A stretch of DNA of 64,000 nucleotides from the IMG/VR virus record IMGVR_UViG_3300046468_002660; one strand, written 5' to 3'. The stretch is from a virus. Below the pieces are notes generated by a model. That model did not search any database. It had not been told where the DNA came from and saw only the letters and a list, made by a program, of their open reading frames with translations. Every line of letters begins with the position of its first letter. Position 1 is the first letter of the stretch. A program made the translations under genes and the position numbers. Of the stretch, positions 23,757 to 54,167 are shown piece after piece.

Positions 23757-23795
23757 TTCGGTATTTTTTTGTGCCATAAAGTGTAAGTGTTTTGT

Positions 23796-27323: not shown

Positions 27324-27335
27324 ATTTCATTTTTG

Positions 27336-27382
27336 AAAAAAAAATATTCGACAAACCACTTAATAGTGGACTATATACATTA
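27336..27382 (+). repeat. 47-bp dispersed upstream element, copy 1 (copy 2 at 39310-39356)
   Basis: 41/47 identical; core AGTGGACTATATACATTA abuts the start codon. Confidence 0.85.
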
Positions 27383-34155: not shown

Positions 34156-34182
34156 AAGGGGGGCTTTGCCCCCCTTTTTTTT
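34156..34182 (+). terminator. Rho-independent terminator
   Basis: AAGGGGGGC-TTT-GCCCCCC followed by T8. Confidence 0.9.
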
Positions 34183-35881: not shown

Positions 35882-37168
35882 ATGGAAGATAAAAATATAG
35901 TTTATGTCGGAATGAGTGCCGATTTAATTCATCCTGGTCATATAAACATACTAGAGTCAGCTTCTAAATATGGTTTAGTAACAGTTGGACTTCTAACAGA
36001 TAAAGCTATTGCAAGTTATAAAAGGCTTCCAGCCTTAACTTACGATCAAAGAAAAAGAGTTATCGAAAATTTCAAATTTGTATCTAATGTTATTCCTCAA
36101 ACAACTTTAGATTATAGTGAAAATCTAAATAAAATTCGACCTAAATATGTTGTTCATGGAGATGATTGGCGAACAGGGATTCAAAAAAGTAGTCGCCAAA
36201 AAGTCATTGATTTATTAGATTCTTGGGGTGGCGAATTAATTGAGCTCGAATATACTCCAGGTATCTCTTCAACTCAATTACATCAAAGCGTTCAAGAGGT
36301 TGGGGTTACCCCACAGATTAGACAAGATAAATTAAAAAGATTATTAAAAGCTAAAGATTATGTTCGAGTTATTGAGTCTCATAATGGACTAAGCGGTTTA
36401 ATAGCTGAAAATGTAAACTTTGAAGGTAAAGAATTTGATGCAATCTGGCTTTCTAGCTTAACAGATTCTACAGTTAGAGGAAAACCTGATATAGAGCTGC
36501 TAGATCGATACGGAACTTTAAATGATATTATTGAGGTAACAACTAAACCCATAATTGTAGATGGAGACACTGGAGGAAAAATAGAGCACTTTTCTTTCAC
36601 TGTTAAAACTTTAGAAAGATTAGGGGTTTCCGCTATAATTATTGAAGACAAAATTGGATTGAAAAAAAACTCCTTGCTTGGAACTGAGGTTAAACAAGAG
36701 CAAGATTCAATAGAAAATTTTTGCAGTAAAATTAAAGCGGGGAAACATTCACAACGCTCAGAAAACTTCATGATTATTGCGAGGGTGGAGAGTTTTATTT
36801 TAGGGAAAACAGTGGAAGATGCAATTGATCGTGCAAAAGCTTATATAGAAGCTGGCGCTGACGGAATTATGATTCATAGCAAAGAGTCCAATGGTGAAGA
36901 AATTATTGATTTCTGTAATGAATACAGCCTCCTGAACCAAAGAGTACCACTTGTTGTTGTGCCATCTTCATACAATCATTTCACAGAACAAGAATTGAAT
37001 GATCTTGGGGCAGATGTTATTATTTACGCAAACCATTTACTAAGAAGCGCTTATCCTAGTATGGTTAAAACAGCAGAATCGATACTTAAACACTCTCGCT
37101 CTCTAGAAGCTTCAAATGAGTGCATGTCTATAAAAAATATTTTAAATTTAATTCCAGGAACGAAATGA
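35882..37168 (+). CDS. pepM: Phosphoenolpyruvate mutase with N-terminal cytidylyltransferase domain (AepX-type)
   Basis: DLIHPGH NTase domain; [14 protein letters not shown] and diagnostic [10 protein letters not shown] (EDKx5NS). Confidence 0.95.
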
Positions 37169-37560
37169 AAAATATTTTATTTAATAAATTAATCGAGGAG
37201 GGGTATAATTTTTTTTGTGGAGTTCCAGATAGCGGCTTGAAAGAATTCCAAAATTCGATAATAGAATCTAATTTTAAAAACGTTATTGCTACAAACGAAG
37301 GGCAAGCTATTGGAATTGCTGTGGGAGCGATGATGACTGGCTTAAAACCTTGCGTCTACATGCAAAATTCTGGTTTAGGAAATGCAATTAATCCTTTGAC
37401 AAGTTTATGCGCTCCTTTTAACCTAAATCCTTTGTTAGTCATAGGTCATAGGCATACATTACCTCAACACAAAATAATGGGAAAGGTTGATGAAGATTTG
37501 CTGGATTTAATAGGTTACAAAAATTACCTTTTAATAAAAGGAGATAATAATGAAAAGTAG
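37165..37560 (+). CDS. Phosphonopyruvate decarboxylase, alpha subunit
   Basis: [37 protein letters not shown]; ATGA-coupled to pepM. Confidence 0.9.
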
Positions 37561-38008
37561 AAAAGAAGCTTTATTGGAAATATTTAATTCTCACCCCAAA
37601 AACTCTCTCTTTGTTATTTCTACTGGGTTTTTATGCAGATCTGTCTATAATTTATTCCCTGATAAAAAAAATATTTTTTATATGCAGGGTAGTATGGGTC
37701 TTGCTCCTTGCATTGCTCTTGGTGTTGCCCTTAACACTTCAAAAGATGTTGTAGTTATTAATGGAGATGGAGCGCATTTAATGCACTTAGGTATAACTCA
37801 TACTATTAGAGATGAAAACCTCAAAAATTTATATCACTATATTCTTGACAATGGATCTCATGAATCTGTTGGCGGTTATAAATGCGCATCCTTAGAAAAA
37901 TCTTATTGTGGGGTTAATAAAATATTTAAAATCTCTAAAGATGGCAAATCTTCACGGGTTGGTTTTGATTTTGAAGATAATAAAAACAATTTTGTAGAAT
38001 CGATATGA
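37550..38008 (+). CDS. Phosphonopyruvate decarboxylase, beta (TPP-binding) subunit
   Basis: STGFLCR, FYMQGSMG, GDGAHLMHLG, DNGSHESVGG. Confidence 0.9.
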   Translation: MKSRKEALLEIFNSHPKNSLFVISTGFLCRSVYNLFPDKKNIFYMQGSMGLAPCIALGVALNTSKDVVVINGDGAHLMHLGITHTIRDENLKNLYHYILDNGSHESVGGYKCASLEKSYCGVNKIFKISKDGKSSRVGFDFEDNKNNFVESI

Positions 38009-38763
38009 CAGATTTTTTTGTATGCTCAAAATCTACTAAAAAATATATAAAAGGCGAAAACTATTATTTAGTTACCGCTCCCCCAACTAAAGATATATTA
38101 AAAAAAGCTCAAAAATTCTCTAATGTCATTGCAATTGGTGGTGGAGCCGTAATCGATACAGCTAAAATTTTATCAAAAACCCCAATCACTTGTTACCCGA
38201 CAACAGCTGCTGGAGCCTCAGATACCAGCCACTCTGTTTACTGGGATGGTTCGAATAAAAAAAATTTTAATTCATTTTTACCAAAACAAGTTTTTTTAAA
38301 AAAAGAATATGTAGAAACTCTCCCAAGCCAGTTAGTATTGGAAACTAAAAGTGACTTAATAGCTCATTGTCTTGATGTTATTTGGTCGAAAGATAAAACA
38401 GAAGATAGTGAATTTTTTGCGAAAAAAGGTTTGAGCATAATATCAAAAGACCCCACTAATCTTGCATTAATTAAAGCTGGTCGCTTTGGAGGAAAAGCTA
38501 TAGAGATTACCCCTACCACCATTCTTCACTCTCTGTCTTACCCATTAACAGGTATATATAATATCTCTCACGGTTTAGCTTTATCTTTTCTCATACCAAA
38601 AGTTTCGTCTTTAATGAATTTTGACCCTCCGAATATAAATTACACAAAAAACTTGCCTGGAATAGACTGGGATATTGTTGTCAGAAAAGCAATGCAATAT
38701 CCAAAGTTTCATAATACTCACAAAAAACTTAGTGTTAAAAATTTAACAAGCGCTTTAATTTAG
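38005..38763 (+). CDS. Iron-containing alcohol dehydrogenase, putative phosphonoacetaldehyde reductase
   Basis: AIGGGAVIDTAK, PTTAAG, HSLSYPL..HG; operon with pepM/ppd. Confidence 0.8.
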   Translation: MTDFFVCSKSTKKYIKGENYYLVTAPPTKDILKKAQKFSNVIAIGGGAVIDTAKILSKTPITCYPTTAAGASDTSHSVYWDGSNKKNFNSFLPKQVFLKKEYVETLPSQLVLETKSDLIAHCLDVIWSKDKTEDSEFFAKKGLSIISKDPTNLALIKAGRFGGKAIEITPTTILHSLSYPLTGIYNISHGLALSFLIPKVSSLMNFDPPNINYTKNLPGIDWDIVVRKAMQYPKFHNTHKKLSVKNLTSALI

Positions 38764-38786: not shown

Positions 38787-39014
38787 ATGGATGATGATTT
38801 TTATATTGGTGGCCCTCGAGATTATGATGAGCAAACAGATGCTTTAAGATTTGATCTTGATGATTTAATAGCTAGATATTTTGAAGAATTTGATCTAAAT
38901 ACTCTTACTATTATTGGAGCTTTGCAAGAAAAAGTTGAAGAATTATGTTCTGGAGGTAATATAGAATTTGAAATGGATGATGATTTTTTTGACGATGAAA
39001 AAGATGAAATTTAA
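38787..39014 (+). CDS. Small very acidic protein
   Basis: 75-aa Asp/Glu-rich ORF. Confidence 0.7.
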   Translation: MDDDFYIGGPRDYDEQTDALRFDLDDLIARYFEEFDLNTLTIIGALQEKVEELCSGGNIEFEMDDDFFDDEKDEI

Positions 39015-39297
39015 GGAATACTATAAACACTATTTAAGCTTACATCAAAACAAAACTTGTATATTATTGCACTACATAGGTCAATGGGCTACAATTGGAG
39101 TTATTTATTTAATTATAAAATATAACTTGTGGTTATTGATACCCATTATACCTTTTGTAGTTTATCCATTTGCTTGGAGCGGACATTATTTTTTTGAAAA
39201 AAATAAACCTGCAGCCTTTAAAAACCCTTGGCTTGCAAAGCTTTCTGACTGGAGAATGTTTTCTGAAATTACCATCGGTAAAATTAAACTTTTTTAA
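39004..39297 (+). CDS. DUF962/Mpo1-like membrane protein
   Basis: YLSLHQN....LHYIG...AWSGHYFFEKNKPAAF..P. Confidence 0.8.
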   Translation: MKFKEYYKHYLSLHQNKTCILLHYIGQWATIGVIYLIIKYNLWLLIPIIPFVVYPFAWSGHYFFEKNKPAAFKNPWLAKLSDWRMFSEITIGKIKLF

Positions 39298-39309
39298 AAT
39301 TCAATATGT

Positions 39310-39356
39310 AAAAAAAAATATTCCACGAAAACCTTAACAGTGGACTATATACATTA
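39310..39356 (+). repeat. 47-bp dispersed upstream element, copy 2
   Basis: 41/47 identical to 27336-27382. Confidence 0.85.
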
Positions 39357-39358
39357 AA

Positions 39359-40186
39359 ATGAAAATACTAGTAACAGGACATAAAGGGTATATAGGATCC
39401 CATCTTTATACCGAACTTAAGCAGCGTAAAGATATTACTGAGATTATAGGTGTAGATCTTCAAGATGGAGATGATATTCTTTATTGTTTACCAGATAAAG
39501 ATGTGGATGTTGTATTTCATTTTGCAGCTTTTCCTAGGGTAGAGTACTCTGTTTTAAACCCAAGCTATACCTTTAAACAAAACTGTTTAGTTACTTCTAC
39601 ATTGCTTGATTGGTCTAGAAAACATAATGTCAAAAAATTTATTTTCTCTTCTTCTTCTGCAATTATGGGGGATGGTGACGGAAAACCTAAATCCCCATAT
39701 GGTTTACATAAACTAATTTCTGAGATGGAGTGCAACTTGTATCAAGATCTATACGGAATACAAACGACATGTTTAAGATATTTTAACGCGTATTCGGAAG
39801 ACCAACCTTATGGAGGAGCCTACACAACTGCAATATCAGCATGGATGGAAATGATTCGTCAAAATAAGCCTTTAAGACTTGATGGAGACGGGGAGCAGAC
39901 TAGAGATTTTGTTCACGTTAATGACATTGTCTCAGCAAATATTCTAGCTATGGATCATGACAATATGGATTCTTCCTACTATGATGTTGGATGTGGAGAG
40001 TCTTTTTCGTTAAATTATATTAAAAAATTTATAGATTCTAAAATTGATGTTGAGTGGGATTTTGCTCCACCTCGAAAAGGTGACGCTAGAAACACTTTAG
40101 CTAATATATCACCACTAAAAGATCGTGGCTGGCTCCCTAAAGTTTCTTTTGATGAGGGATTGCAAAAATGTTTCGGCAACTTTTAA
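39359..40186 (+). CDS. NAD-dependent epimerase/dehydratase
   Basis: TGHKGYIG, SSSA, YGLHK, LRYFNAY, GDGEQTRDFVHV. Confidence 0.92.
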   Translation: MKILVTGHKGYIGSHLYTELKQRKDITEIIGVDLQDGDDILYCLPDKDVDVVFHFAAFPRVEYSVLNPSYTFKQNCLVTSTLLDWSRKHNVKKFIFSSSSAIMGDGDGKPKSPYGLHKLISEMECNLYQDLYGIQTTCLRYFNAYSEDQPYGGAYTTAISAWMEMIRQNKPLRLDGDGEQTRDFVHVNDIVSANILAMDHDNMDSSYYDVGCGESFSLNYIKKFIDSKIDVEWDFAPPRKGDARNTLANISPLKDRGWLPKVSFDEGLQKCFGNF

Positions 40187-40206
40187 TTTATTGTGTAAAT
40201 TGATAT

Positions 40207-40428
40207 GTGAATGATCGATCTTGCATTTATTTTTTATTTTTTCTATTAGTTTTAGTTACATATTTTTTATATGATAAAGTTATAGACAATAATCGATTAT
40301 ATCAAATATGCAAAGATCAAGATGAAACTATACACTTGCAATCAGAAGCTATTGCTAAACAAAATTTGTATATTAATATATTAAACAACTCAAGCAATTA
40401 TAAATCTATATATTCTCCCATTCATTAA
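40207..40428 (+). CDS. Small membrane-anchored protein
   Basis: N-terminal TM; GTGTA motif 14 nt upstream. Confidence 0.6.
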   Translation: MNDRSCIYFLFFLLVLVTYFLYDKVIDNNRLYQICKDQDETIHLQSEAIAKQNLYINILNNSSNYKSIYSPIH

Positions 40429-40429
40429 A

Positions 40430-40801
40430 ATGACAATTAGAAGTTTAATTTCAGAATGTAATTATAAATACTTTTTTAATGCTATCTACAAGTATTACTT
40501 AAAAGATAATACTCATGATTTTGTGAGAGGGTTTGACACCCTGCTTTTTAATTATTTTAAGTTGACAAGGAACAATAAGTTAATTGAAGATTTGGATCAA
40601 AATTTTCAGCTATACCTTTCAAATCCTTCTGATCAGATTATTGATGTCAGCGTTTTGGATCTTGCTTTAGATGAACTGCAAACGACTGATAAATTCAAAT
40701 TAGATCAAGTCTTAAATTTTGAAATTATTACCTCTGTGCAATTAAACAAACAAGAAATTTTAGCTCATTGTATCTGGGCCTTTAAAAGTGAGCTTGTATA
40801 A
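40430..40801 (+). CDS. Hypothetical protein
   Basis: 123-aa ORF. Confidence 0.65.
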   Translation: MTIRSLISECNYKYFFNAIYKYYLKDNTHDFVRGFDTLLFNYFKLTRNNKLIEDLDQNFQLYLSNPSDQIIDVSVLDLALDELQTTDKFKLDQVLNFEIITSVQLNKQEILAHCIWAFKSELV

Positions 40802-41294
40802 CCTCCCAACTCACATAAAATCTCCACAAATTGTTTATGGTGTTGTGGAAATAGAAGAAGGTCATAAAAACAAGTATGAGTACGACCCTAATTTAGGCGG
40901 TTTTCTTTATGATCGATGTCTTACTTCAGCAATGGTATATCCTGCAAGCTATGGTTTCATACCAAACACTTTATGTGAAGATGGAGATCCCTTAGATATA
41001 TTGATTATCAGTCCAGAACCAATAAAACGGGCCACTATTGTTGAGTCGAAAGTTTTGGGTGTTTTAGATATGGAAGATGAAGGAGATAAAGATTTTAAAA
41101 TCTTGGCTGTTCCTAATTTTTACACTCATAAATATTCTAACTTACAATCCATTGATAAAGCTTTTTTAGAGATATGTAAAAACTTTTTTGCGCATTATAA
41201 AGATTTATCAGCTTCTGGAGATAGGGTAAAAGTTTTTGATTGGCATGACAAAAAACATGCGCAAAACATTATAAAAGAAAGGATTATAAAATGA
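40788..41294 (+). CDS. ppa: Family I inorganic pyrophosphatase
   Basis: KYEYD, YPASYGFIPNT, DGDPLD, DEGDKDFK, FFAHYK. Confidence 0.95.
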   Translation: MSLYNLPTHIKSPQIVYGVVEIEEGHKNKYEYDPNLGGFLYDRCLTSAMVYPASYGFIPNTLCEDGDPLDILIISPEPIKRATIVESKVLGVLDMEDEGDKDFKILAVPNFYTHKYSNLQSIDKAFLEICKNFFAHYKDLSASGDRVKVFDWHDKKHAQNIIKERIIK

Positions 41295-41365
41295 GTGTTA
41301 TTGCTGTAATTGGGCTTCTTGCTGTTATATATACTGTTTGTTCTTGGGAAAAATATAAATGGTGA
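41291..41365 (+). CDS. 24-aa single-TM small protein (not in ORF track)
   Basis: MSVIAVIGLLAVIYTVCSWEKYKW*; ATGA coupling. Confidence 0.5.
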   Translation: MSVIAVIGLLAVIYTVCSWEKYKW

Positions 41366-41384
41366 ATAATGTGTAACATATTAT

Positions 41385-41585
41385 GTGTCTAAATTTTTTT
41401 GTTTGGTTTTTTTATTCGGTTGCACAACAACTCAAAATCTAAAAGTCACTGATACAAAGTTTACTGATTCTAACCGTGACTGGTCAGCTGTATACAGAGA
41501 AGAAATAAGAATCGCTATTGAAAACGGGGATAAAGAAGCACATTATTTTTTTATTCAAGAGTTGGTTAAGTTGAAGTTTAAATAA
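41385..41585 (+). CDS. Small putative lipoprotein
   Basis: Lipobox-like VFLFGC. Confidence 0.55.
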   Translation: MSKFFCLVFLFGCTTTQNLKVTDTKFTDSNRDWSAVYREEIRIAIENGDKEAHYFFIQELVKLKFK

Positions 41586-41672
41586 GTTTTTAAAAAAAAT
41601 AGAAATTTTTACTTATTTTCTTATGATATATTGCAGAAAGAAAGTTTTAAAAATTTAGTAAAACAAAGAATT

Positions 41673-42398
41673 ATGACAAACGATAATCCTTCATCACTCA
41701 AAAATATTTTTTGTGTATCGTACGGTCATGAAGTGAGTATTAAATTCGACACTTCTCCAGAATTTGATTTGGTGGTTCTTAATTATAGCGATGAAGGGTC
41801 AGAAAATAAATTTCCTCATGATTGCACTCATGAGATGCACGTTAAGACAGAATGTAAAGGCGATCTAATGTTGTTGGCATTAAATTTTGTAAACTTAAAT
41901 TATAAAGATTACTCTAGAGTATGTGTGTTTGATGATGATATTACAATAACAATTTCACAGATCAATCAATTATTCGCAATAGCAGAACAGCACTCGCTCG
42001 ATCAATTTGCTCCATCATTATCACGAGACAGTGTCTTTACTCATGCACACACGTTGTGTCACAACAAGGGTGTGCGGAAAGTGCAATGGGTGGAAGTTAT
42101 GATGCCTGGTTTCAGCAAAAGATTTGTTGACCAGATGTTACCATTGTATAATGACTTATATGATACACACAACTTAAAAAGTTCATGGGGGCTGGATACT
42201 CATGTATTCCCAGCAGTCAATAGCAGCATCAATGGCGGTTGTGCGATTATAGATGACATAATTGTGAAGCATCATAGAGCAATACGTAGTCAAGATATAC
42301 AGTTTTCTAATGGTCGATACGCCTCTCAAGAAGCGGCGATAATATGGAGCAAAATAAATGAATTTTCAAAGAAACACCTTTTTCAAAAACATGATTAA
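41673..42398 (+). CDS. DUF707-like glycosyltransferase
   Basis: FDDDI, WVEVMMPGFS, WGLD, AIIDD..V.H. Confidence 0.65.
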   Translation: MTNDNPSSLKNIFCVSYGHEVSIKFDTSPEFDLVVLNYSDEGSENKFPHDCTHEMHVKTECKGDLMLLALNFVNLNYKDYSRVCVFDDDITITISQINQLFAIAEQHSLDQFAPSLSRDSVFTHAHTLCHNKGVRKVQWVEVMMPGFSKRFVDQMLPLYNDLYDTHNLKSSWGLDTHVFPAVNSSINGGCAIIDDIIVKHHRAIRSQDIQFSNGRYASQEAAIIWSKINEFSKKHLFQKHD

Positions 42399-43116
42399 CA
42401 ACTTTTTTAATAAAATTTTTGTGATTAATCTTCAGAGATGTTCTGATCGAAAAAATCACGTTGAGAAAATAATGTCTGAACAAAATGTTGACTTTGATTT
42501 TGTGGAAGCTGTTGATGGAGAAGCTGAATTTAAAGATCACGAATATTATGTCGATTTTTTAAAAAAAAATTGTTATAACTGCAACAACTGGAACCAAAGC
42601 AAAGCTCAACTTGGTTGTTGGTTAAGTCATATAAAAATTTGGGAAAAAATTGTAGCAGAAAACATTGAATCTTGTTTAATTTTAGAAGATGATTTTCTTT
42701 TTAATAAAAACGCAAGTGTTGAAGAAACATTAAAAGATCTACCTAAAGACTGGAACATCTTTATGGCTGGTTATGGTAGCGCTCAGATTTCAGATGTGAT
42801 AAATGACAATATTGTTAGGCTTACCACTCCTTCTTGCACTCATGCTTATGCTTTAAAATATGAAGCTGCAAAAATTATTTTAGATAATTGCTATCCATTA
42901 ATGGGAGCTTTAGATAGTTTCACTGGGCATATATTTTTTACTAGAGACAATAATAAAATCTTTAAAAATGGTTTTGAAACTAGGTGTAATTTTACCGCAG
43001 AAGAAATGCAAAAAAGAAACCCTAAATATAGTCTAAATTCTTTGGATAATCTATTTAGTTACGCACCAAAAGAACCTCTTTTTACCCAAGGAGGTTCTAA
43101 TTACTCTACAATTTAA
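42391..43116 (+). CDS. Glycosyltransferase family 25
   Basis: FVINL.R..DR, EAVDG, GCWLSH..IW, LILEDD, THAY. Confidence 0.9.
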   Translation: MINNFFNKIFVINLQRCSDRKNHVEKIMSEQNVDFDFVEAVDGEAEFKDHEYYVDFLKKNCYNCNNWNQSKAQLGCWLSHIKIWEKIVAENIESCLILEDDFLFNKNASVEETLKDLPKDWNIFMAGYGSAQISDVINDNIVRLTTPSCTHAYALKYEAAKIILDNCYPLMGALDSFTGHIFFTRDNNKIFKNGFETRCNFTAEEMQKRNPKYSLNSLDNLFSYAPKEPLFTQGGSNYSTI

Positions 43117-43120
43117 TTCT

Positions 43121-44119
43121 ATGAATTATTTAATTAACTTTGCTCATGGCACTTACTTAGGAGCTCAAAAACAAAACTCTAAGACAGGGATAGAATCTGG
43201 ATGTTTCGATGCTGTTATTCAATATAAATATAAAGACATTGAAGAAAGTTTTGAAGTTGAAAATTCGGAAATTTTAAATGGCGGTAATAGCAAGGGTGCT
43301 GGTTTTTGGCTCTGGAAACCTTATTTTTTACTTAAAACTTTAAAATCCGTCAATGAAGGAGATATAATTTTTTATTCTGACTCTGGAGCCTCCTTTGTGA
43401 GAGATGTTAAACCCTTGATAAATGAAGTTAAAAATTCCCCCCAAGGTCTCGCTTGTTTTCATTTAGGTGGAGATCATAAAGAAGGTCTTTGGACTCAAAA
43501 AACTACGCTTTATGGAATGGAGATGGATACTGAAGAAATAAGAAGTTCAACTCAAATAATGGCGAGTTTTGTCGTTGCAAAAAAATGCGCAAGTGCAATA
43601 TCTATTATTGAAGATTGGTTATCTTTTTGCAAAAAACCTGAGCTTATACGTGATAATAAAAATCTTGGTAAAAACTATCCTGGATTCAGATCTCATAGAC
43701 ATGATCAATCAATTTGGAGTTTAATTTGCAAAAAGCATAAAGTTAAGATTCTTCCCGATCCAACTCATTGGGGATTACATTATAATGGAGATCGCAAAGA
43801 CTTTTTTATATTTCATCATCGCCAAGATCCTCCACCAAAAGAAATTCCTTTGGATTTAATCAATATCGCAAATAATTTCAATAAAATAGATTTAAAAAAT
43901 CATCCAGCTCTAGGAACTTGGAATTATCACAATGTTTTTTATCGTGATGTCTCTGAAGACGGTTCTGTTGTACTTAGGAAAAATGACGATATTATATGGA
44001 CTAAAAATTGCATTTCTAAAACTAAAGATTCTTTTTTATTGGAAGACGATCTTTTTCATCAATTTGTTGATGGAAGTTTAAACATAGAGGGCAAATACAA
44101 AGGAGCAAGAGTTCAATGA
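43121..44119 (+). CDS. Putative glycosyltransferase
   Basis: GFWLWKPY, YSDSG, HRHDQSIWSL. Confidence 0.6.
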   Translation: MNYLINFAHGTYLGAQKQNSKTGIESGCFDAVIQYKYKDIEESFEVENSEILNGGNSKGAGFWLWKPYFLLKTLKSVNEGDIIFYSDSGASFVRDVKPLINEVKNSPQGLACFHLGGDHKEGLWTQKTTLYGMEMDTEEIRSSTQIMASFVVAKKCASAISIIEDWLSFCKKPELIRDNKNLGKNYPGFRSHRHDQSIWSLICKKHKVKILPDPTHWGLHYNGDRKDFFIFHHRQDPPPKEIPLDLINIANNFNKIDLKNHPALGTWNYHNVFYRDVSEDGSVVLRKNDDIIWTKNCISKTKDSFLLEDDLFHQFVDGSLNIEGKYKGARVQ

Positions 44120-45069
44120 ATTTTGAATTTAAAAAATTAGATTATAAAAATCTTTTAAATAAGTATTCTATTGAAATAGCTAGCAATGAACCCTCAGAAA
44201 GAGAGTTTGCCTATGCTAAAGTTTCTTTTAATCAACTTTCTGAAATTGATTACTCTATTGTGATGCCAGTGTTCAATCAAGAAGATTTAATTAAAAAACA
44301 TATAGAATCTATATTAAAATATACTAAAGACAATTATGAACTAATTTTAATATTGGATTTTTGTGTAGACAACACAGAAAAAGAAATTTTAAATTTTTTC
44401 TCGAACTACGCTAATAGTTACAATAATTTAGAATCTGTTACTATTGTTAAGCACTGTAAATTTCCAATTTTCGAAGCTTCTTGTGATAACGTTGGCTTTA
44501 TGCTTGCTAAAGGAAAATTCCTACTAGAAATACAATCAGATATGGAAATGACTGAAAGTGGTTATAATTTACAATTAAAAAGACCTTTTGATCATTTTGA
44601 TAACTGTATAGGTGTTTCTGGAAGATGCACGGCTAACTTTTCTAAAAGTTGGCTTACTGGTTCCAAATGTCACAGCACCTTAACTAAAGTATCTGACACT
44701 GGTACTAGTAGAGATATTTTTTATCAACATGATACTTGCTGTCGAGGTCCATTATTACTAGATAGAGAAAAATCTGCAAGCTTATCTTTTTTAAATGAAA
44801 AAGATTTTCATCTAGACGATGCTGATCATCACTTTTTCGCAAGAGCTTCAGCTGAAAACTATATATGTGGATACATGGCAATTGATTTTTATTCTAATCT
44901 AAACATGGGATCTTCAAGAAAGAGGGGTAAATTACCTCGTGATTCATATTTAATAAATGAAGAATACCTACATTTAAGACAGCAAAACTATAGTGTTAAT
45001 TTTTATGATGGCACTAACTTTATACAAATGCCAAATGTCATTAAACACGAACTTATAAAAAATAATTAA
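44116..45069 (+). CDS. Glycosyltransferase family 2
   Basis: SIVMPVFNQE, ELILILD.C.D.T, A.GKFL. Confidence 0.8.
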   Translation: MNFEFKKLDYKNLLNKYSIEIASNEPSEREFAYAKVSFNQLSEIDYSIVMPVFNQEDLIKKHIESILKYTKDNYELILILDFCVDNTEKEILNFFSNYANSYNNLESVTIVKHCKFPIFEASCDNVGFMLAKGKFLLEIQSDMEMTESGYNLQLKRPFDHFDNCIGVSGRCTANFSKSWLTGSKCHSTLTKVSDTGTSRDIFYQHDTCCRGPLLLDREKSASLSFLNEKDFHLDDADHHFFARASAENYICGYMAIDFYSNLNMGSSRKRGKLPRDSYLINEEYLHLRQQNYSVNFYDGTNFIQMPNVIKHELIKNN

Positions 45070-45077
45070 AAAATAAT

Positions 45078-45869
45078 ATGGAAATCACAGATTCAGAAAA
45101 AGCAAAATTACTAAACGCCTTTAGAAGTTCGTCTGCAAACGACGAATCTTTTAAAAACTTATGGTATAAAGGAGCCTCTTTATATATTCCACAAATTAAT
45201 GAACTTTTAAATTTAACTCCTGATAATTCGTTTGAATTAAAAGATATTGATCATTTTAAAAACGAAGATCAAAATTATTTAGGGGATATTTTCTCCAAGT
45301 ATAAATCTGATAAATCTACACAACATAATTATCATATTTTATATTCTTTTATCTTAAACTCTCTAGGTAAAGACAAGGAATTAAACCTCCTTGAGATAGG
45401 TCTGGGCACAAACAACGGCAGTCTTGTATCGTCAATGGGTGCTGACGGCACTCCAGGAGCTTCAACTAGAGCTTTTAAAGAGTATTTACCTAATGGTAAT
45501 ATATATGGAGCTGATATAGATAAAGAAATTTTATTTGAAGAAGATAGAATTAAAACTTGTTATGTAGATCAACTTGAAATTGATTCTTTCTCCAACATCA
45601 CTGAAACTTTTGGTGATATAAAATATGATTTAATTATAGACGATGGACTTCATTCAACTGGCGCTAATCTTAATACATTACTCTTTGCTCTAAATAATGT
45701 AAAGGGTGGGGGCTGGATAGTTATAGAAGACATAGGATTTGAAACTTTTGGTTTATATAACAACTGGAAGATAGTTCATTATATATTGTCTAAACTACCC
45801 TTGGAAGTTTACATGGTCAAGGCTAGGCATCATTGCTTATTTTGTGTCCGTAAAAATTATATTAATTAA
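45078..45869 (+). CDS. Class I SAM-dependent O-methyltransferase
   Basis: SDK...HNY, LLEIGLG, YGADID, DLIIDDGLH, GGWIVIEDI. Confidence 0.8.
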   Translation: MEITDSEKAKLLNAFRSSSANDESFKNLWYKGASLYIPQINELLNLTPDNSFELKDIDHFKNEDQNYLGDIFSKYKSDKSTQHNYHILYSFILNSLGKDKELNLLEIGLGTNNGSLVSSMGADGTPGASTRAFKEYLPNGNIYGADIDKEILFEEDRIKTCYVDQLEIDSFSNITETFGDIKYDLIIDDGLHSTGANLNTLLFALNNVKGGGWIVIEDIGFETFGLYNNWKIVHYILSKLPLEVYMVKARHHCLFCVRKNYIN

Positions 45870-45905
45870 TTGCATATCCTCGTTCTAGAAGTGTAAGTAT
45901 GTTTA

Positions 45906-46619
45906 GTGAATTATATTAGTTACAGTTTGTGGGGGGGTGAGTCTATTTATAATCAAGGTGCCATTCAAAACGCCAAACAAATCTCCGAAATATACCCAAA
46001 TTGGAAAATGGTAGTTTTTCACTCCCAAAAAACCTCCAAAAAAATTTTAAACGAATTAGTATCGTTAGATTGTCTTTGCATAAAAGCTGACGAGTCTTTT
46101 TATGGAATGTTTTGGAGGTTTTTTGCTCATGATTTAGCTGATGCTGATTATATTATCTTTCGAGATGTTGATTCTAGATTGAGTTTGAGAGAAAAATTTG
46201 CGGTTGAAGAGTGGATTGCTTCTGGTAAAAGCGCTCATTGCATTAGAGACCATCCTTTGCATAGAATCCCAGCGAGATGCGCTTACCCTTCTTTCTTGGG
46301 AGGCATGTGGGGAATAAAAAAAAGCTCTTATCCATCATTGATTAGTGAAATTAAAAAATCTCCACTTTCAAAATGCTTTGCTGGGGAAAATAAAAACTCT
46401 CGTGCGCTATATGGCTTTGATCAAGAATTTTTGCAAAACATTTATAATTATTTTAATAACAAAAATGACATTTTTATCCATGATGAATTTGGTGATGGCA
46501 ATAAAATAGATTACCCTAGAGATAATTATGCCTTTATAGGAGAAAGAATGACAGTTAATAATCTACCAACTTGTTCAGACAGAAACTATATTAAAGCTTG
46601 GTACAATGAAAATAAATAA
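45906..46619 (+). CDS. Putative glycosyltransferase (paralog of 6545 N-terminus)
   Basis: ISYSLWG, FWRF, RDVDSR, REKFAV.EW, GGMWG, DQ.FL. Confidence 0.6.
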   Translation: MNYISYSLWGGESIYNQGAIQNAKQISEIYPNWKMVVFHSQKTSKKILNELVSLDCLCIKADESFYGMFWRFFAHDLADADYIIFRDVDSRLSLREKFAVEEWIASGKSAHCIRDHPLHRIPARCAYPSFLGGMWGIKKSSYPSLISEIKKSPLSKCFAGENKNSRALYGFDQEFLQNIYNYFNNKNDIFIHDEFGDGNKIDYPRDNYAFIGERMTVNNLPTCSDRNYIKAWYNENK

Positions 46620-47364
46620 AGTTATACTCTCCTCAAATAACAACCCTAACTATATAGAGTTTTGGCCTTCGGTTTACGAAACTTGGTCTAAACTTGGGGT
46701 TGAAGCTTATTTATTTTACATCGGCAAAAGCTCTAAACATTTAAACTACTCGGAAAACGTTCTTACTTTCGATATTGACCTTATGGGTGTAAACGATTGT
46801 TTTGCATCTCAATGTTTAAGGTTATTGGGGCCAAGCCTTTTCCCTGATGACTTTGTTATTATATCTGATGTGGACATGTATCCGTTAAGTTATGATTATT
46901 TTCACAAAAGTGTAGAAAACCTTAAAGATGATTTATTTATTAATTATAGAGGCGGTGTAGTGAGAAGTTCAGAGTTGCCAATGTGTTATAATTTAGCCAA
47001 AGGTTCGACTTGGAGGGAAGTTTTTGAAATTGAAAGCGAAGACTTGGCAAATTCTTGGAAATCTATTTTTCGAGACATTTTAATAAAATGGTTTCCAGTT
47101 GAATATAAAACTCCTTGGGAGGTTCACCAAGGCTACCTCTGGGAAACTGATCAATCTCAACTCAGAAGTCACATTAATAAATGGAACGCAAAGACAAAGA
47201 GATTTTATCAACTTTATGATCGTGATACTAATTTTTCCAGGCTAGATCATAGAGGTGGCAGATTACATGATTCGTATACTGATGGTAATACTGATTTTTC
47301 GCCCGCAAGACCCTTTTCTGAACATGAAGATCGCATTTTAAAAGTTATAAATCAAATAGTATGA
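46606..47364 (+). CDS. Putative glycosyltransferase (DxD)
   Basis: Y.EFWP, SDVDM, WETDQ; within glycan cluster. Confidence 0.55.
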   Translation: MKINKVILSSNNNPNYIEFWPSVYETWSKLGVEAYLFYIGKSSKHLNYSENVLTFDIDLMGVNDCFASQCLRLLGPSLFPDDFVIISDVDMYPLSYDYFHKSVENLKDDLFINYRGGVVRSSELPMCYNLAKGSTWREVFEIESEDLANSWKSIFRDILIKWFPVEYKTPWEVHQGYLWETDQSQLRSHINKWNAKTKRFYQLYDRDTNFSRLDHRGGRLHDSYTDGNTDFSPARPFSEHEDRILKVINQIV

Positions 47365-48143
47365 ACAACTTTATAGAAATTAATAAATTCTCACATCTTC
47401 ATGACGGCGATAAAGTTTTCTTTTGTAAAACTGATTTTTTGAACAACCAATTTCGTGAAATTTCTAAACTAAAACATGACGTTCTTTTAATTTCTGGGAA
47501 TTCAGATTATTGTATTACTGACAATCATATTAAAGAGCTGCCAAGTAACGTTAAGTTTTGGTTTGCTCACAACTGCTTGGTTGATGATGACAGAGTTCAT
47601 CCACTTCCAATGGGTATAGAAAATCAATCAGAGTCAGCCTTGGGTGCAAGACATGGAGTATCTTGGGGAGGGAGAAAACGAGACATCTTATTATCTAACA
47701 TAAAACAAAAACCTCCTACAAAATTTGCTTATTCAAATTTTCGAATTTGGACAAACTCTGAACATAGATCCTTAATTCGTGATATCAGCATTGAAGCTGA
47801 TTATATTGACTGGGAAAATCCATCTCTTACAAATGAAGGCTTTTATAATAAATGTTTAGATTACGAATTAGTTGTTTGTGCTCAGGGTAATGGCCCAGGA
47901 GATAATCATAGAATCTATGAAACTCTTTATCTTGAAAGAATTCCTATTACTTTTAATCAGTGTATGTACAAAAAATTGCATCATAACTTTCCTGTTATTT
48001 GCCTAGATGATCCCAATAAATTAAAAGATAAAAAATTTTTAGATGAAGAGCTAAAGAAAATAAAATCGAAAACATTTAATAGGAACATGTTACACCCAGA
48101 ATGGTGGATTAACGAAATAAAAAATAAAATAGAATTATTATGA
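47361..48143 (+). CDS. Exostosin/GT47-like glycosyltransferase
   Basis: PLPMGIEN, CAQGNG..NHRIYETLYL.RIPI. Confidence 0.6.
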   Translation: MNNFIEINKFSHLHDGDKVFFCKTDFLNNQFREISKLKHDVLLISGNSDYCITDNHIKELPSNVKFWFAHNCLVDDDRVHPLPMGIENQSESALGARHGVSWGGRKRDILLSNIKQKPPTKFAYSNFRIWTNSEHRSLIRDISIEADYIDWENPSLTNEGFYNKCLDYELVVCAQGNGPGDNHRIYETLYLERIPITFNQCMYKKLHHNFPVICLDDPNKLKDKKFLDEELKKIKSKTFNRNMLHPEWWINEIKNKIELL

Positions 48144-48556
48144 AATCAATCAATGATGTTAAACAAGGTAAAAATGTAAAAATTAGTGACTTTACAAATC
48201 TTTATGGCTGTGAATTGGAGGATGATGTTTTCGTCGGTCCCTTTGTTGAAATACAGTCTAACGTAAAAATCGGAAAATCAACAAGAGTTTCATCACATTC
48301 TTTTATTTGCTCGAATGTAAATGTAGGCAAAAATTGCTTCATAGCGCATGGAGTTATGTTTACAAATGATAAATTTACAGAAAACAAAAGTGAGTGGATA
48401 GAAAGACCGACCCAAATTGGAAATAATGTCAGAATTGGATCTAATGCAACTATATTACCAGTGACTATTGGAGATAATGTTATTATTGGTGCAGGAGCTG
48501 TTGTTACAAAAGATGTTCCTAGTAACTCTGTAGTGAAAGGTAATCCAGCAAAATGA
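48140..48556 (+). CDS. Hexapeptide-repeat sugar N-acetyltransferase (WbpD/FdtC-like)
   Basis: NLYGC, GPFVEIQ, GVMFTND, GAGAVVTKDVP, GNPA. Confidence 0.9.
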   Translation: MKSINDVKQGKNVKISDFTNLYGCELEDDVFVGPFVEIQSNVKIGKSTRVSSHSFICSNVNVGKNCFIAHGVMFTNDKFTENKSEWIERPTQIGNNVRIGSNATILPVTIGDNVIIGAGAVVTKDVPSNSVVKGNPAK

Positions 48557-49434
48557 ATCTTAAAATAGGTATAGTTGGTCTTGGTTATTGGGGAAAAATA
48601 ATTTTAAAAAACTTAAAAGGTTTAGGGTATAAAAATATAAAAGTATATGAACCAAATAAAATTAATTGGGGAGATATAGGCTTTAAGGTTCCCACGGCAG
48701 AAAGTATGGAGGATTTGCTTGATAGAGATAAAATCTTTGTTGTAACTCCGACTAATACTCATTCTTTAGTTTGTAATTTTTTTATTAAGCATGGTGTAGA
48801 TATTTTTTGCGAAAAACCTTTAACAAATGATTTAAGCGCGACTCTAGATTTGTACAAAAACATTAACGAAAACTCTTCAAAACTTTTTGTTGACTGGCTT
48901 TTTACTTTTAACCCTGCTGTCAAAAAAATAAAGGAAATCATTCAATCGAAAGGAGCTCCCAAAACAATTATTTCAAATCGCTTGAATTATGGACCTCAAA
49001 GATTTGATGTCGATGCGAGGCTAGACTTATCATCGCACGATGTTTCTATAATGTTGCATTGGCTTGAAGTTTTTCCAACTACAATAAACTGGGTTGACTT
49101 TAAAAGAAATAAGTCCTCTGTCACCAATGATAGCAATATTGGAGTTCTTTCATTCGACAAGGGGGACAACACCACATCAGTTCAAATTAATTCTAGTTGG
49201 GAATTTGGAGAAAAAAATAGGGATGTTATAATTGAATTTTACGATGGCGAATTTTTAAAATGGAATGATTTCTCTGGATTGCTTACCTTAAATGGCTCAA
49301 ACATATCTTTTGAAAATTACTCCCCTTTAGAAAAAAGTATTTCTACTTTTTTAGAAAACAAATTTGATCAAGAAAAAAACAAGCTGTTAACTATAAATAT
49401 TAATAAAATTTTGCAAAATGAAGATACAATTTAA
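48553..49434 (+). CDS. Gfo/Idh/MocA oxidoreductase (WbpB-like)
   Basis: GLGYWG, TPTNTH, CEKP, DLSSHD. Confidence 0.88.
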   Translation: MNLKIGIVGLGYWGKIILKNLKGLGYKNIKVYEPNKINWGDIGFKVPTAESMEDLLDRDKIFVVTPTNTHSLVCNFFIKHGVDIFCEKPLTNDLSATLDLYKNINENSSKLFVDWLFTFNPAVKKIKEIIQSKGAPKTIISNRLNYGPQRFDVDARLDLSSHDVSIMLHWLEVFPTTINWVDFKRNKSSVTNDSNIGVLSFDKGDNTTSVQINSSWEFGEKNRDVIIEFYDGEFLKWNDFSGLLTLNGSNISFENYSPLEKSISTFLENKFDQEKNKLLTININKILQNEDTI

Positions 49435-50524
49435 CGACCTTAATGCTCAGTGGCAAATAATCAAAAAAAATACGCTTAAAGAGTTTGAAAAACTTTTTAA
49501 AAAGTCTAATTTTATTTTAGGGGATCAAGTCAAAACTTTTGAAGATAATTTCTCTAAATACATCAACTCAAAATACTCTGTTGGCGTTTCAAATGGAACA
49601 GATGCATTAAAATTGTCAACTCAGGCTCTTGACCTTCAAGGTTCTATATGTTTTATATTGCCAGCAAATACATATGTTGCAACAATCCTCGGTCCTGAGC
49701 AAGCTTACCCAAATGCACATTTTGAAATTGTTGACTGCGATAATTTTCATCAAATTGACACAAAAAAGACAGAAAACTTTTTAAAGAAAAATTCTTCCCG
49801 CTTTGACAGTATTGTGTTAATTCCTGTTCACCTTTATGGATATTCTTGCGACATGGATGAATTAATGAGAATAAAAAAGCAATACAATTGCTACATGATT
49901 GAAGATTCTTCTCAAGCTCATGGAGCACAATGGAAAGGCAAGACGGTAGGGACTTTTGGTGATGTCTCAGCTTTTTCCTTATACCCTGGGAAAAATTTAG
50001 GTGCGGCTGGAGACGCGGGTGTAATATCTACGAACAACAAACAAATTTACGATAAATTATTAAAGCTTAGAGGTTTAGGTTCAGTTAAAAAATATATTCA
50101 TGACATGAAAGGTGGTAATCATCGTTTAGACACTCTTCAAGCAATTATTTTAAATGAAAAAATTAAATTTATTGAAGATTGGAATGAATCGAGAAGAAGA
50201 GTGGTTAAATTTTTTGAGTCGAAAATATCAAATCCAAAGATAAAACTGCCAAAAACTCAAAACTATTGCTTGCCTGTTCATCATATCTACCCAGTTTTAG
50301 TAGATAATAGAGATGATTTTACAAATTTTTTAGATAAACATTCTATCCAGTGGGGTATACATTACCCAATATGTATAGAAGATATGTGCATGTATAAAAA
50401 TTTAGTCCCCAAGCCAAATGTTAAGGCATTATCTTTTAGCAAACGGATGGTAAGCCTGCCAATACATCCTTTTTTAAACGAGCAACAGCTTGACTATTTA
50501 GTTGAAATTTTAAATATTTATTAA
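49418..50524 (+). CDS. DegT/DnrJ/EryC1/StrS sugar aminotransferase
   Basis: VSNGTDAL, PVHLYG, EDSSQAHGA, SLYPGKNLGAAGDAG, RLDTLQA. Confidence 0.95.
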   Translation: MKIQFNDLNAQWQIIKKNTLKEFEKLFKKSNFILGDQVKTFEDNFSKYINSKYSVGVSNGTDALKLSTQALDLQGSICFILPANTYVATILGPEQAYPNAHFEIVDCDNFHQIDTKKTENFLKKNSSRFDSIVLIPVHLYGYSCDMDELMRIKKQYNCYMIEDSSQAHGAQWKGKTVGTFGDVSAFSLYPGKNLGAAGDAGVISTNNKQIYDKLLKLRGLGSVKKYIHDMKGGNHRLDTLQAIILNEKIKFIEDWNESRRRVVKFFESKISNPKIKLPKTQNYCLPVHHIYPVLVDNRDDFTNFLDKHSIQWGIHYPICIEDMCMYKNLVPKPNVKALSFSKRMVSLPIHPFLNEQQLDYLVEILNIY

Positions 50525-50599
50525 ATTTTAAAGAAACTTTTAGCGTTGTGAATGTGTATAGTTGATTTTTTAAAGTTTTATTTTAATATCTAAATATAG

Positions 50600-51592
50600 A
50601 TGAGCGAAAGCATTCGAGAAAAAAATAAAAAAATAATCAAAAATATGCTTTTTTGGTTACATCAAGTTTGCTTAAAGCATAATTTAAGATATATGGCGAA
50701 AGGTGGAACATTAATTGGAGCGGTAAGACATAAAGGAGTAATTCCTTGGGATGGAGATGGTGACGTTTTTATGCCTATTGATGATTGGCTAAAACTCCAT
50801 AAACTTATTACTGAAATTGAAGACCCTTATTTCTTAAATTCAGATGGGTCATGGACTTCGGCAAGAACTCCAACTTGGGGAAGTTTAAGCTCTGGTCACC
50901 CACAAAAAGGAGTTGTTAAAAAGTTCAACATGCCGAATGATCTTTTTTTTCAATGTGCTGCAACCGATTATCATATGGCAGGTAGAATTATTAAAATAAG
51001 GTCAAAAGAACTCTATAATACCCCCGCCTCAACCTGGGGACCATCTCACGCAGGTGTGCAGTTAGATATATTCCCAATAACAATTCAACACGATCACATC
51101 TTAATAGATTATGAAGAAACCCCAACTGGTCATTATCATTGGCAACCTCTAAGCGAAGTATTTCCTTTAGTTACATTGCCGTTTGAAGATAGAGAAATTT
51201 TTTGCGCAAAAAACCATTTATCTAGATTAAAAGATTCTTACGGAGCAGAAATTCCCCCATTCCCCGAAAACTATAGACATCTTTTAGGGGATGGTTGGTC
51301 TCATGAAGGTCCAGTTGCAGAAATAAAATCACGCCCATTAAATTATTATCTTGAACATTTTCCTCATTTTTACAATGAAGATATGTCTTTAAAAGATTCT
51401 ACTATTTCTGGAAACCCAGAGTCTGTTGAAGAATTTCTTTCAAAGAATACATTAAAAGCTGCAACTCCAGACACTTACGTTCCTCAAAACACTAAACCAA
51501 GAAAAGGGACGGACCCTTTTTGGAAATTATTTTCTCAACACGAAAAAACAAAAGGTAAAGAATTTGTTCAAACTCGCCCTCCTAAACTTTAA
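50600..51592 (+). CDS. LicD-family phosphotransferase
   Basis: GGTLIGAVRHKGVIPWDGDGDV, LDIFP, VFPL..LPFE, L...YG. Confidence 0.88.
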   Translation: MSESIREKNKKIIKNMLFWLHQVCLKHNLRYMAKGGTLIGAVRHKGVIPWDGDGDVFMPIDDWLKLHKLITEIEDPYFLNSDGSWTSARTPTWGSLSSGHPQKGVVKKFNMPNDLFFQCAATDYHMAGRIIKIRSKELYNTPASTWGPSHAGVQLDIFPITIQHDHILIDYEETPTGHYHWQPLSEVFPLVTLPFEDREIFCAKNHLSRLKDSYGAEIPPFPENYRHLLGDGWSHEGPVAEIKSRPLNYYLEHFPHFYNEDMSLKDSTISGNPESVEEFLSKNTLKAATPDTYVPQNTKPRKGTDPFWKLFSQHEKTKGKEFVQTRPPKL

Positions 51593-53904: not shown

Positions 53905-54167
53905 TAGCTTTTAACAAATATTACTCAGAACAGCCTCAAGATCCTTTAAAAAAATTACAACAGCTTCTAAATAAAATTGATCTTTTTGAAGAAGATGATT
54001 TTTTAGAAGAAGCCTTCGACGAAAACACTTCAAATAATTCAAATTTATCAGAGCTTTTAGAGATTGTATATTTTCATTTATTTACTGAAAATTATTCCAA
54101 CATCGACCTTTCCATAACGAAAAACAAAAATAATTCACTAGAAATAAAGATCAAAAAACTATCATGA
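53901..54167 (+). CDS. Hypothetical protein
   Basis: ORF with ATGA coupling on both sides. Confidence 0.6.
   Translation: MIAFNKYYSEQPQDPLKKLQQLLNKIDLFEEDDFLEEAFDENTSNNSNLSELLEIVYFHLFTENYSNIDLSITKNKNNSLEIKIKKLS

Follow-up and report, generated by a model that had tools for sequence, protein, structure and literature searches.

A HEP operon and sugar-enzyme island in a tailed-phage genome, with a LicD-family protein as candidate phosphonyl transferase

LicD-like phosphotransferases were described in the neighbourhoods of bacterial pepM genes by Rice et al. in 2019, and the idea of a link between LicD and phosphonates was already raised in that work (PMC6697681). Here we analysed 64,000 nucleotides of a tailed-phage genome (IMG/VR record IMGVR_UViG_3300046468_002660; hereafter, the window), in which a run of sugar enzymes of approximately 12 kb, on one strand and with few gaps (39359–51592; hereafter, the island), lies directly downstream of an operon for 2-hydroxyethylphosphonate (HEP) and its predicted cytidine monophosphate (CMP) ester, CMP-HEP. 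The last gene of the island (50600–51592, + strand) encodes a LicD-family phosphotransferase, a candidate CMP-HEP:glycan phosphonyl transferase. We are inclined, with modest confidence, to read the operon and the island together as the phage's own pathway, located wholly in the cytoplasm, for making a glycan that bears a phosphonate. A first-pass annotation of the DNA had singled out this combination as the best candidate for a new system; given the work of 2019, it is rather the known logic of phosphonyl tailoring, in its HEP branch and with a Fom1-type fused cytidylyltransferase, placed in a phage with a virus-type glycosyltransferase (GT) toolkit.

The window has in common with bacterial Pnt clusters (PMC6697681) the phosphoenolpyruvate (PEP) mutase PepM, the phosphonopyruvate decarboxylase Ppd, activation to a CMP derivative by a cytidylyltransferase, a LicD-family gene and GT genes nearby, and the predicted placement of the phosphonate on a glycan. 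Comparison of the two revealed that (i) the window belongs to a tailed phage and has an iron-dependent alcohol dehydrogenase (Fe-ADH), that is, the HEP branch, whereas Pnt clusters have an aminotransferase, the 2-aminoethylphosphonate (AEP) branch; (ii) the cytidylyltransferase of the window is of the PF01467 type and is fused to PepM; (iii) the window has no envelope export genes; and (iv) its LicD gene is 11.8 kb away from the operon, at the far end of the GT island, and belongs to a subfamily of its own with a C-terminal extension. The fused architecture and the predicted CMP-HEP intermediate are shared with the early fosfomycin pathway of Streptomyces wedmorensis (Fom1, a CyTase-PepM, with Fom2 and FomC; PMC6697681). 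In that pathway CMP-HEP is transient and is C-methylated by Fom3, whereas the system in the window includes a LicD gene and no radical S-adenosylmethionine (SAM) enzyme, and CMP-HEP is therefore read as a transfer donor.

Likeness to the lic1/LicD systems, which decorate Haemophilus lipooligosaccharide (LOS) and S. pneumoniae teichoic acids with phosphocholine, and to the ribitol-phosphate transferases FKRP and fukutin (PDB 6kaj) lies in the LicD sequence family, in the Asp motif and in the predicted reaction, in which a donor activated by cytidine would give up a phospho-substituent to a hydroxyl of a glycan. By contrast, the donor in the window would be a CMP-phosphonate and not a cytidine diphosphate (CDP)-alcohol, the window LicD has an insert of ~70 residues and a C-terminal extension of ~80 residues, and neither a choline kinase nor LicC accompanies it. 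Capsid glycosylation in chlorovirus PBCV-1 (A075L/GT114 and A064R, among others; PMC11571054, PMC9614988) likewise uses virus-encoded soluble cytoplasmic GTs and a methyltransferase, and one gene of the island (47361–48143) is a GT114 homologue; the window, however, comes from a tailed phage of a bacterium, shows no relationship to the chlorovirus in its remaining GTs and would add a phosphonate. A viral counterpart is a metagenome contig of a nucleocytoplasmic large DNA virus (NCLDV), in which an AEP pathway stands beside amino-sugar genes and is likewise read as making a phosphonoglycan (Li and Horsman 2022, PMC8942020). The AEP branch is thus found there in a giant virus, and the HEP branch here in a phage. 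The same study scanned 364 huge-phage genomes and named the NCLDV contig as the sole virus-encoded phosphonate pathway (PMC8942020). Our literature search on phage or auxiliary-metabolic pepM found nothing beyond it, and no phosphonate-glycan cassette described in a tailed phage.

The operon begins with a gene for a fusion of a cytidylyltransferase and PEP mutase (CT-PepM; 35882–37168, + strand), which matched PF13714 (E 9e-56) and PF01467 (E 8e-12), scored 386 bits against TIGR02320, above the equivalog cut-off of 319.55, and carries the EDK-x5-NS motif. CT-PepM is predicted to form the C–P bond and CMP-HEP, which would make it the donor-forming enzyme for LicD. Ppd is split in two + strand genes (37120–37560 and 37550–38008) that correspond to the N- and C-terminal halves of TIGR03297 (E 2e-33 and 8e-32, respectively). 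The last gene of the operon (38005–38763, + strand) encodes a short Fe-ADH, predicted from its sequence to reduce phosphonoacetaldehyde to HEP; its best NCBIfam match, TIGR03405 (Phn_Fe-ADH, E 3e-19), is under the cut-off, and the gene is kept in 20 viral loci. The features that mark phosphonyl tailoring, namely the PepM motif, Ppd with a branch enzyme (of the HEP and not the AEP branch), a PF01467 cytidylyltransferase, and LicD and GT genes in the neighbourhood, are all found here. The domain fused to PepM, whose substrate specificity is predicted, is the sole clear cytidylyltransferase in the window: the other nucleotidyltransferase-like domain resembles the nicotinamide mononucleotide (NMN) adenylyltransferase or sulfurylase type, and no LicC, TagD or TarI-type gene is present in the window.

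The LicD protein matched PF04991 with 91.3 bits (cut-off 22.6 bits, E 1e-25), in two stretches. Its P-W-D-G-D-G-D sequence, the metal-binding Asp motif, aligns with P-W-D-Y-D-V-D of FKRP and is invariant in the 11 members of the subfamily. Ten close relatives are 63–89% identical, beyond which only generic LicD proteins are reached (E ~1e-16), and the subfamily shares the ~70-residue internal insert and the ~80-residue C-terminal extension, which is conserved. The AlphaFold2 model built from the 11-sequence alignment had a mean pLDDT of 42, too poor for a fold comparison.

The evidence that ties LicD to the HEP operon is comparative and draws on viral, genome and metagenome loci. The viral set consisted of 21 IMG/VR contigs with the CT-PepM/split-Ppd/short Fe-ADH operon (53–71% identity), whose whole records were searched with the Pfam LicD model; the genome set consisted of 80 bacterial or archaeal loci with a CT-PepM fusion (60–69% identical), which were searched with a LicD hidden Markov model built from 120 sequences, their distal flanks serving as an internal control. 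Ppd and Fe-ADH are kept in at least 71 of the 80 bacterial and archaeal loci, and 23 of the 80 have a LicD gene within 1.5 kb of the operon, mostly as the gene that follows immediately in the same orientation. The distal flanks gave 4 LicD matches in 844 kb, so that the density near the operon (0.108 matches/kb, compared with 0.0047) corresponds to a 23-fold enrichment. LicD is also present in 4 of the 21 viral records, each time at most 1.7 kb from the operon, and in 2 metagenome contigs (L038 and L039) it directly precedes a stand-alone PepM and Ppd. In the window, PepM and LicD agree in the length of their longest Logan contig (160,389 bp). The same holds, at 22,168 bp, for a PepM that is 99% identical (P0244) and a LicD that is 83% identical (P0005), and it appears that at least one further contig carries this PepM together with this LicD subfamily. 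The 83.6-kb contig of another LicD relative (P0002) had no counterpart among the PepM clusters listed.

LicD is genuinely linked to this HEP operon across bacteria and in several viruses. Because of this linkage, and because no enzyme of the window other than the cytidylyltransferase fused to PepM would plausibly supply a donor activated by cytidine, the best available reading of the gene context is that the LicD protein would act as a CMP-HEP:glycan phosphonyl transferase. The first-pass annotation had already proposed that LicD transfers HEP from CMP-HEP, and had looked to the co-occurrence of licD and pepM to bear this out. Gene context supports the proposal (23 of 80 and 4 of 21 loci), its chemistry being predicted; LicD proved strongly enriched beside the operon in bacteria and present in some viral records, and its presence is not universal.

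Several observations weigh against LicD as the CMP-HEP transferase. A LicD-like gene is missing in 17 of the 21 viral HEP records, including a complete genome of 189 kb, which indicates that the cassette works without LicD elsewhere. The LicD gene of the window, although on the same strand, is at a distance from the operon, as the last gene of the island, and its product forms a separate subfamily that is no closer to the operon-linked LicD proteins, which are themselves diverse, than to generic ones. In a 12-kb metagenome contig from a related phage (L034, 1–12103), a LicD orthologue (77%) is preceded by 4.2 kb of sequence up to the contig end, and pepM does not occur in that stretch. No report of any LicD acting on a CMP-phosphonate was found in the literature, and the protein could instead use a CDP-alcohol of the host. 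A profile–profile comparison (hhalign) of all conserved gene clusters of the viral loci with the LicD profile found nothing further that is LicD-like. A shared alternative transferase in the LicD-less cassettes was looked for and not found: the clusters that immediately precede pepM (c5, c30, c37 and c79) have no detectable mutual homology.

The L034 contig also places a boundary. Synteny downstream of LicD is kept, including a tRNA-Thr, whereas a different sugar island lies to the left, with GT61-like and SnoaL-like genes, unassigned genes and, directly before LicD, a methyltransferase gene that is a weak homologue of the one in the window. According to this comparison, LicD is the right edge of a swappable island.

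The genes of the island were borne out where the first-pass annotation had placed them, with families essentially as listed, and the families and gene order support its description of a cytoplasmic glycan toolkit beside an intact HEP/CMP-HEP operon. All are on the + strand. A GalE-like NAD-dependent sugar epimerase/dehydratase (39359–40186; PF01370, E 1e-46), with GxxGxxG and YxxxK motifs, comes first, and a 123-aa protein with no Pfam, NCBIfam or PHROG match (40430–40801) precedes a family I inorganic pyrophosphatase (40788–41294; PF00719, E 1e-45; NF002317, E 9e-44). The pyrophosphatase had been taken as a partner of the nucleotidyltransferase reactions; it occurs in 1 of the 80 bacterial loci and in none of the 21 viral loci, and a specific role in the pathway was rejected.

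Seven GT-like genes had been listed in the island, and our tally from sequence and predicted structure is 3 firm, 3 probable and 1 doubtful. The firm ones are (i) a GT25-family gene (42358–43116; PF01755, E 1e-25); (ii) a GT2-family gene (44116–45069; PF00535, E 4e-9; GalT1, PDB 5hea, E 1e-5); and (iii) the gene formerly called “exostosin”-like, now classified as an A075L-type GT114 enzyme of the GT-B fold (47361–48143; PDB 8q8i/8avq/8asa, E 3e-15, residues 36–253). The S-D, R and H-R positions of this protein align with the catalytic Asp73, the phosphate-binding Arg158 and Arg208 of A075L. A075L of PBCV-1, the founding member of CAZy family GT114, is the cytosolic xylosyltransferase for the core of the capsid N-glycan, and the family also has bacterial members (PMC11571054).

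The 3 probable transferases, for which classification yielded GT-A leads, have no Pfam, NCBIfam or PHROG match. The product of 43121–44119 has a GT-A-like predicted fold (Atlas structure search, TM 0.65–0.70 to GT2 and GT34 clusters), its nearest Atlas clusters being Uroviricota. That of 46606–47364 has GT-A/GT8-like features, with Atlas values of 0.99 to Uroviricota clusters and 0.93–0.94 to GT8/Nucleotid_trans clusters, and a homologue in the viral HEP locus L002. The families of these 2 proteins consist almost only of tailed-phage records. The third protein (45906–46619), in which a D-V-D motif follows a predicted strand, is probably a GT-A (GT8-like) transferase; its AlphaFold2 model is poor (pLDDT 53), and the Foldseek matches from that model, to glycogenin and an LPS (lipopolysaccharide) glycosyltransferase, are weak and GT8-like only. 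Homologues of this gene adjoin a GT2 gene in Synechococcus phage S-SRM01 and lie upstream of pepM in L002. The doubtful member is the DUF707-like protein (41631–42398; PF05212, E 6e-4), a possible GT-A-type transferase with a weak match of 19.6 bits, under the Pfam cut-off of 24.1, and no PDB matches.

The island also encodes a class I SAM methyltransferase (45078–45869), which is weak in Pfam and could be classified through PDB as similar to the macrolide sugar O-methyltransferases TylE (8ia9, 2e-10) and MycE (3ssm, 2e-9); its family is very abundant in marine data. Between the GT114 and LicD genes, a hexapeptide acetyltransferase (48140–48556; PF00132, E 8e-24), a Gfo/Idh/MocA oxidoreductase (48553–49434; PF01408, E 1e-12) and a DegT aminotransferase (49418–50524; PF01041, E 1e-72) overlap by their stops and starts and make up a complete WbpB/WbpE/WbpD-type gene set, predicted to make a 3-acetamido, possibly a 2,3-diacetamido, nucleotide sugar. 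Equivalog-level identity is absent for the trio, with NCBIfam matches far under the cut-offs (for the oxidoreductase, UDP-GlcNAc 3-dehydrogenase as the best match, 66 compared with 450 bits, E 4e-18).

None of the island enzymes has a membrane segment. A six-frame hydropathy scan of the 64 kb found no open reading frame (ORF) with more than 3 predicted membrane segments. Within these 64 kb, flippase, polymerase, permease and priming transferase genes are thus lacking, in agreement with the earlier statement that Wzx/Wzy, ABC export and undecaprenyl priming genes are missing. An ordinary host LPS or capsule locus was rejected, given the phage replication genes and the lack of polytopic membrane proteins in the window. 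The island does hold, or adjoin, several small genes that the first-pass annotation had overlooked. A very acidic 75-aa ORF (38787–39014) follows the operon and is followed by the gene for an Mpo1-like/DUF962 protein, small and membrane-bound by prediction, in which two segments are hydrophobic (38968–39297, + strand; PF06127, E 4e-27). A 73-aa protein with a hydrophobic N-terminus, that is, an N-terminal membrane anchor (40207–40428, + strand), and a 66-aa predicted lipoprotein with a signal peptide and an L-F-G-C lipobox (41385–41585, + strand) both start 14 nt past a GTGTAA hexamer (described below).

Homologues of the Mpo1-like gene were found in 3 viral HEP loci, all of them LicD-bearing (L013:5272–5577, L015:6743–7099 and L016:33–335), and in 2 of these it adjoins LicD. 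The gene is restricted to LicD-bearing viral cassettes, 3 of the 4 loci being mutually related, which amounts to approximately 2 independent observations, and it is absent from the 80 bacterial HEP loci. The protein is of an iron-dioxygenase family, and its target might be the phosphonate or a lipid; a smaller possibility is that it accompanies LicD in order to modify the head group of the phosphonate chemically.

Building on the observed enzyme families, gene order and comparative linkage, a pathway can be proposed in which we infer all substrates, the order of the steps and the acceptor. The upstream operon would convert PEP to HEP, and the cytidylyltransferase domain fused to PepM would convert HEP to CMP-HEP. 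The epimerase and the oxidoreductase/aminotransferase/acetyltransferase trio would turn UDP-sugars of the host into rarer donors, from which 6 or 7 soluble GTs (GT25, GT2, GT114 and the GT-A-like viral families) would assemble a short chain on an acceptor accessible from the cytoplasm. The TylE/MycE-like methyltransferase would O-methylate a sugar, and LicD would then use CMP-HEP to place the HEP-phosphonyl group on a hydroxyl of a sugar, with release of CMP and a phosphonate monoester as the product.

For the acceptor, a host envelope glycoconjugate made at the inner membrane face and the virion proteins of the phage each have somewhat less than an even chance, and a small chance is left to something else. 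The first-pass annotation had placed the glycan on virion proteins, which was an overstatement: it drew solely on the missing export genes and one chlorovirus-like GT, and the host envelope is about equally likely. In bacteria, soluble or peripheral enzymes extend LOS-type cores and add LicD-dependent decorations at the cytoplasmic face, and the products leave by housekeeping export, as in the lic1 and lgt systems. The missing Wzx/Wzy genes therefore do not imply virion proteins, because these processes also need no phage flippase. A glycan built on capsid or tail proteins themselves while still in the cytoplasm, in the manner of chloroviruses, mimiviruses and some mycobacteriophages, and capped with HEP by LicD, a possibility that we hold tentatively, is consistent with enzymes that are all soluble, with a window without priming or export gene, and with the GT114 homologue, since A075L builds the core of the PBCV-1 capsid N-glycan and its catalytic residues are kept, although bacterial GT114 members exist (PMC11571054). 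The spending of 15 genes on a structural component of the virion has giant-virus precedent (PMC9614988). No acceptor or glycosylation site on a virion protein was identified, however, and the window has no structural genes; the island is set among replication and regulatory genes. Equally tentative is the view that the soluble GTs and LicD extend a lipid-linked or LOS-type acceptor of the host at the inner membrane face, which the host machinery then exports, so that the surface of the infected cell is altered and, for example, other phages or the re-adsorption of progeny are blocked. In Haemophilus, LOS is decorated by GT25- and LicD-type enzymes without a dedicated flippase (lic1 and lgt systems), and GT25 and LicD in the island are enzyme types of this kind. 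The origin of the GTs bears on both views: several come from overwhelmingly viral families, and are not host-like, which argues for virion decoration and against remodelling of the host surface; GT9-type genes in related viral cassettes point to the host surface. The lipoprotein and the two small membrane proteins, all envelope-directed, speak for the host surface and against the virion. So does the presence of the same HEP–LicD operon in bacterial chromosomes. Phage sensitivity of Enterococcus is reported to be governed by a LicD-dependent wall decoration (preprint 10.1101/2025.05.13.653012), and marine pepM has been proposed to yield surface phosphonoglycoproteins that lower viral lysis (PMC8931226). 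Remodelling of the host surface is nevertheless at odds with the lack of any host-like acceptor-specific gene and with the cost of a 12-kb island for exclusion, for which phages usually use single small proteins.

Two further explanations separate LicD, or the whole island, from a phosphonate-tagged surface glycan. LicD may be unrelated to the phosphonate and add phosphocholine, glycerol-phosphate or ribitol-phosphate made by the host, with HEP being transferred by an unrecognised transferase or staying a small molecule. The 17 viral cassettes that function without LicD and the 11.8 kb between operon and LicD in the window are what this explanation would lead one to expect, as are 3 viral or metagenome contigs (L032, L036 and L043) in which LicD is paired with a cytidylyltransferase but not with pepM, and the LicD orthologue of L034 with no visible pepM. 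We regard it as unlikely, given that the window holds no LicC, TagD or TarI-type gene, that LicD is strongly enriched beside the same operon elsewhere, and that CMP-HEP would then lack a consumer in the window. Modification of phage DNA, or a soluble glycosylated phosphonate metabolite in place of a surface glycan, is very improbable. It would make sense of a nearby nucleotide-metabolism gene (deoxyribosyltransferase-like, 27382–27921) and of the Fom3-like B12 radical-SAM enzyme in some related cassettes, which is typical of small-molecule phosphonate pathways; yet GT25, GT2, GT114 and LicD are glycan-building families, seven transferases far exceed the known needs of DNA glycosylation, and no base-hydroxymethylase was found among the ORFs scanned. 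Returning to the virion, the most detailed version, in which virion proteins bear a self-built, O-methylated and possibly sulfated oligosaccharide with a HEP-ester cap, made by cytosolic chlorovirus-like GTs and the new LicD subfamily, is rather unlikely.

Across the viral loci, only the four-gene HEP core, an SDR (short-chain dehydrogenase/reductase) epimerase (19 loci), the methyltransferase family (10) and DegT-type aminotransferases (8) recur; in 9 of the viral cassettes, the gene immediately after Fe-ADH is a homologue of the methyltransferase. Hardly any GT genes are common to different phages, other cassettes having GT9-like, TOD1/MUCI70-like, DUF5672 and FkbM genes. The DNA polymerase of the window is shared by none of the 19 larger pepM-bearing viral records, which indicates that the HEP core has moved among unrelated phages, each time into a variable sugar island. 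Being unrelated phages, these records are uninformative on the destination of the window phage’s glycan. A tblastn search with two large neighbour genes of other viral cassettes, as a tail-fibre check, found nothing. Five viral cassettes carry a Fom3-type B12-binding radical-SAM enzyme (L013:6485–8026, L015:8680–10203, L016:6185–7708, L017:5941–7191 and L020:12938–14458), which might C-methylate CMP-HEP and so give a different phosphonate head group.

Sulfation of the glycan had been suggested as a possibility, and genes that fit it exist, although outside the island. A Sulfotransfer_2-family protein (57039–57704, + strand; PF03567, E 1e-6, 29.6 bits compared with a cut-off of 22), with GTGTAA upstream of its gene, is a possible glycan sulfotransferase. 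The product of 23787–24599 (+ strand) has an APS (adenosine 5′-phosphosulfate)-kinase-like P-loop domain (PF01583, E 5e-12) fused to an HxGH nucleotidyltransferase-like domain, with PDB matches to APS kinases (7e-6) and NMN adenylyltransferase (1e-3). These two and a DUF1501 protein (22404–23756) could form a sulfate-activation and transfer set for the same glycan.

The window has a G+C content of ~31%, and nearly all its genes are on the + strand. Its replication genes encode a UvsX-like recombinase, a DnaB-type helicase, a primase and a family-B DNA polymerase, and a Lon-like protease is also present. A 652-aa protein with a C-terminal GT10 (fucosyltransferase) domain (8797–10755) is encoded between the recombinase and helicase genes, far from the island. 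A strong terminator (34156–34176) is followed by a long co-directional run, consisting of a 538-aa ATPase-like gene, the phosphonate operon (35882–38763) and the island. A 15.7-kb region had no megablast match in 50,697 phage records, and a search for relatives in IMG/VR with LicD alone, the 538-aa upstream gene and one downstream gene found none; the lineage of this phage is scarcely represented in IMG/VR.

The hexamer GTGTAA occurs at 15119, 22044, 23781, 28372, 34183, 35823, 38763, 40193, 41371, 45891 and 57015; 11 of its 21 + strand copies lie within the ~5% of the window that is non-coding. At 7 sites it is 6–24 nt upstream of a start codon; these precede the APS-kinase-like, sulfotransferase and ATPase-like genes, 3 of the 4 island sub-units and a gene at 28386. 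The distance to the pepM start is 59 nt, and to the starts at 15274, 22404 (DUF1501) and 41631 it is 155–360 nt. GTGTAA is probably a phage promoter or initiation signal of one co-regulated set. The window also encodes a Sigma70_r2 protein (54164–54691) and a protein with GerE and Sigma70_r4-like regions (26268–27323), which are possible phage transcription factors for the phage's own promoter class. An element of ~47 bp is duplicated at 27324–27381 and 39298–39358, immediately upstream of the deoxyribosyltransferase-like and epimerase genes, respectively.

A large reservoir of organic phosphorus in the sea consists of phosphonate esters of polysaccharides, HEP esters included; those of methylphosphonate give rise to oceanic methane, and a minority of bacteria is believed to make such compounds (PMC8931226). 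If phages bring along a HEP pathway together with a glycan toolkit and a transferase, viruses, or cells that they have reprogrammed, would also count among the makers. The island is also a compact set of soluble enzymes for testing LicD on CMP-phosphonates, a step proposed since 2019, and it bears on the use that phages make of glycans, whether on their particles or on infected cells. If the glycan is carried by virion proteins, this phage would be the first bacteriophage with a phosphonylated glycan on its particles, and viruses would be a direct source of HEP-esterified polysaccharide in marine dissolved organic matter.

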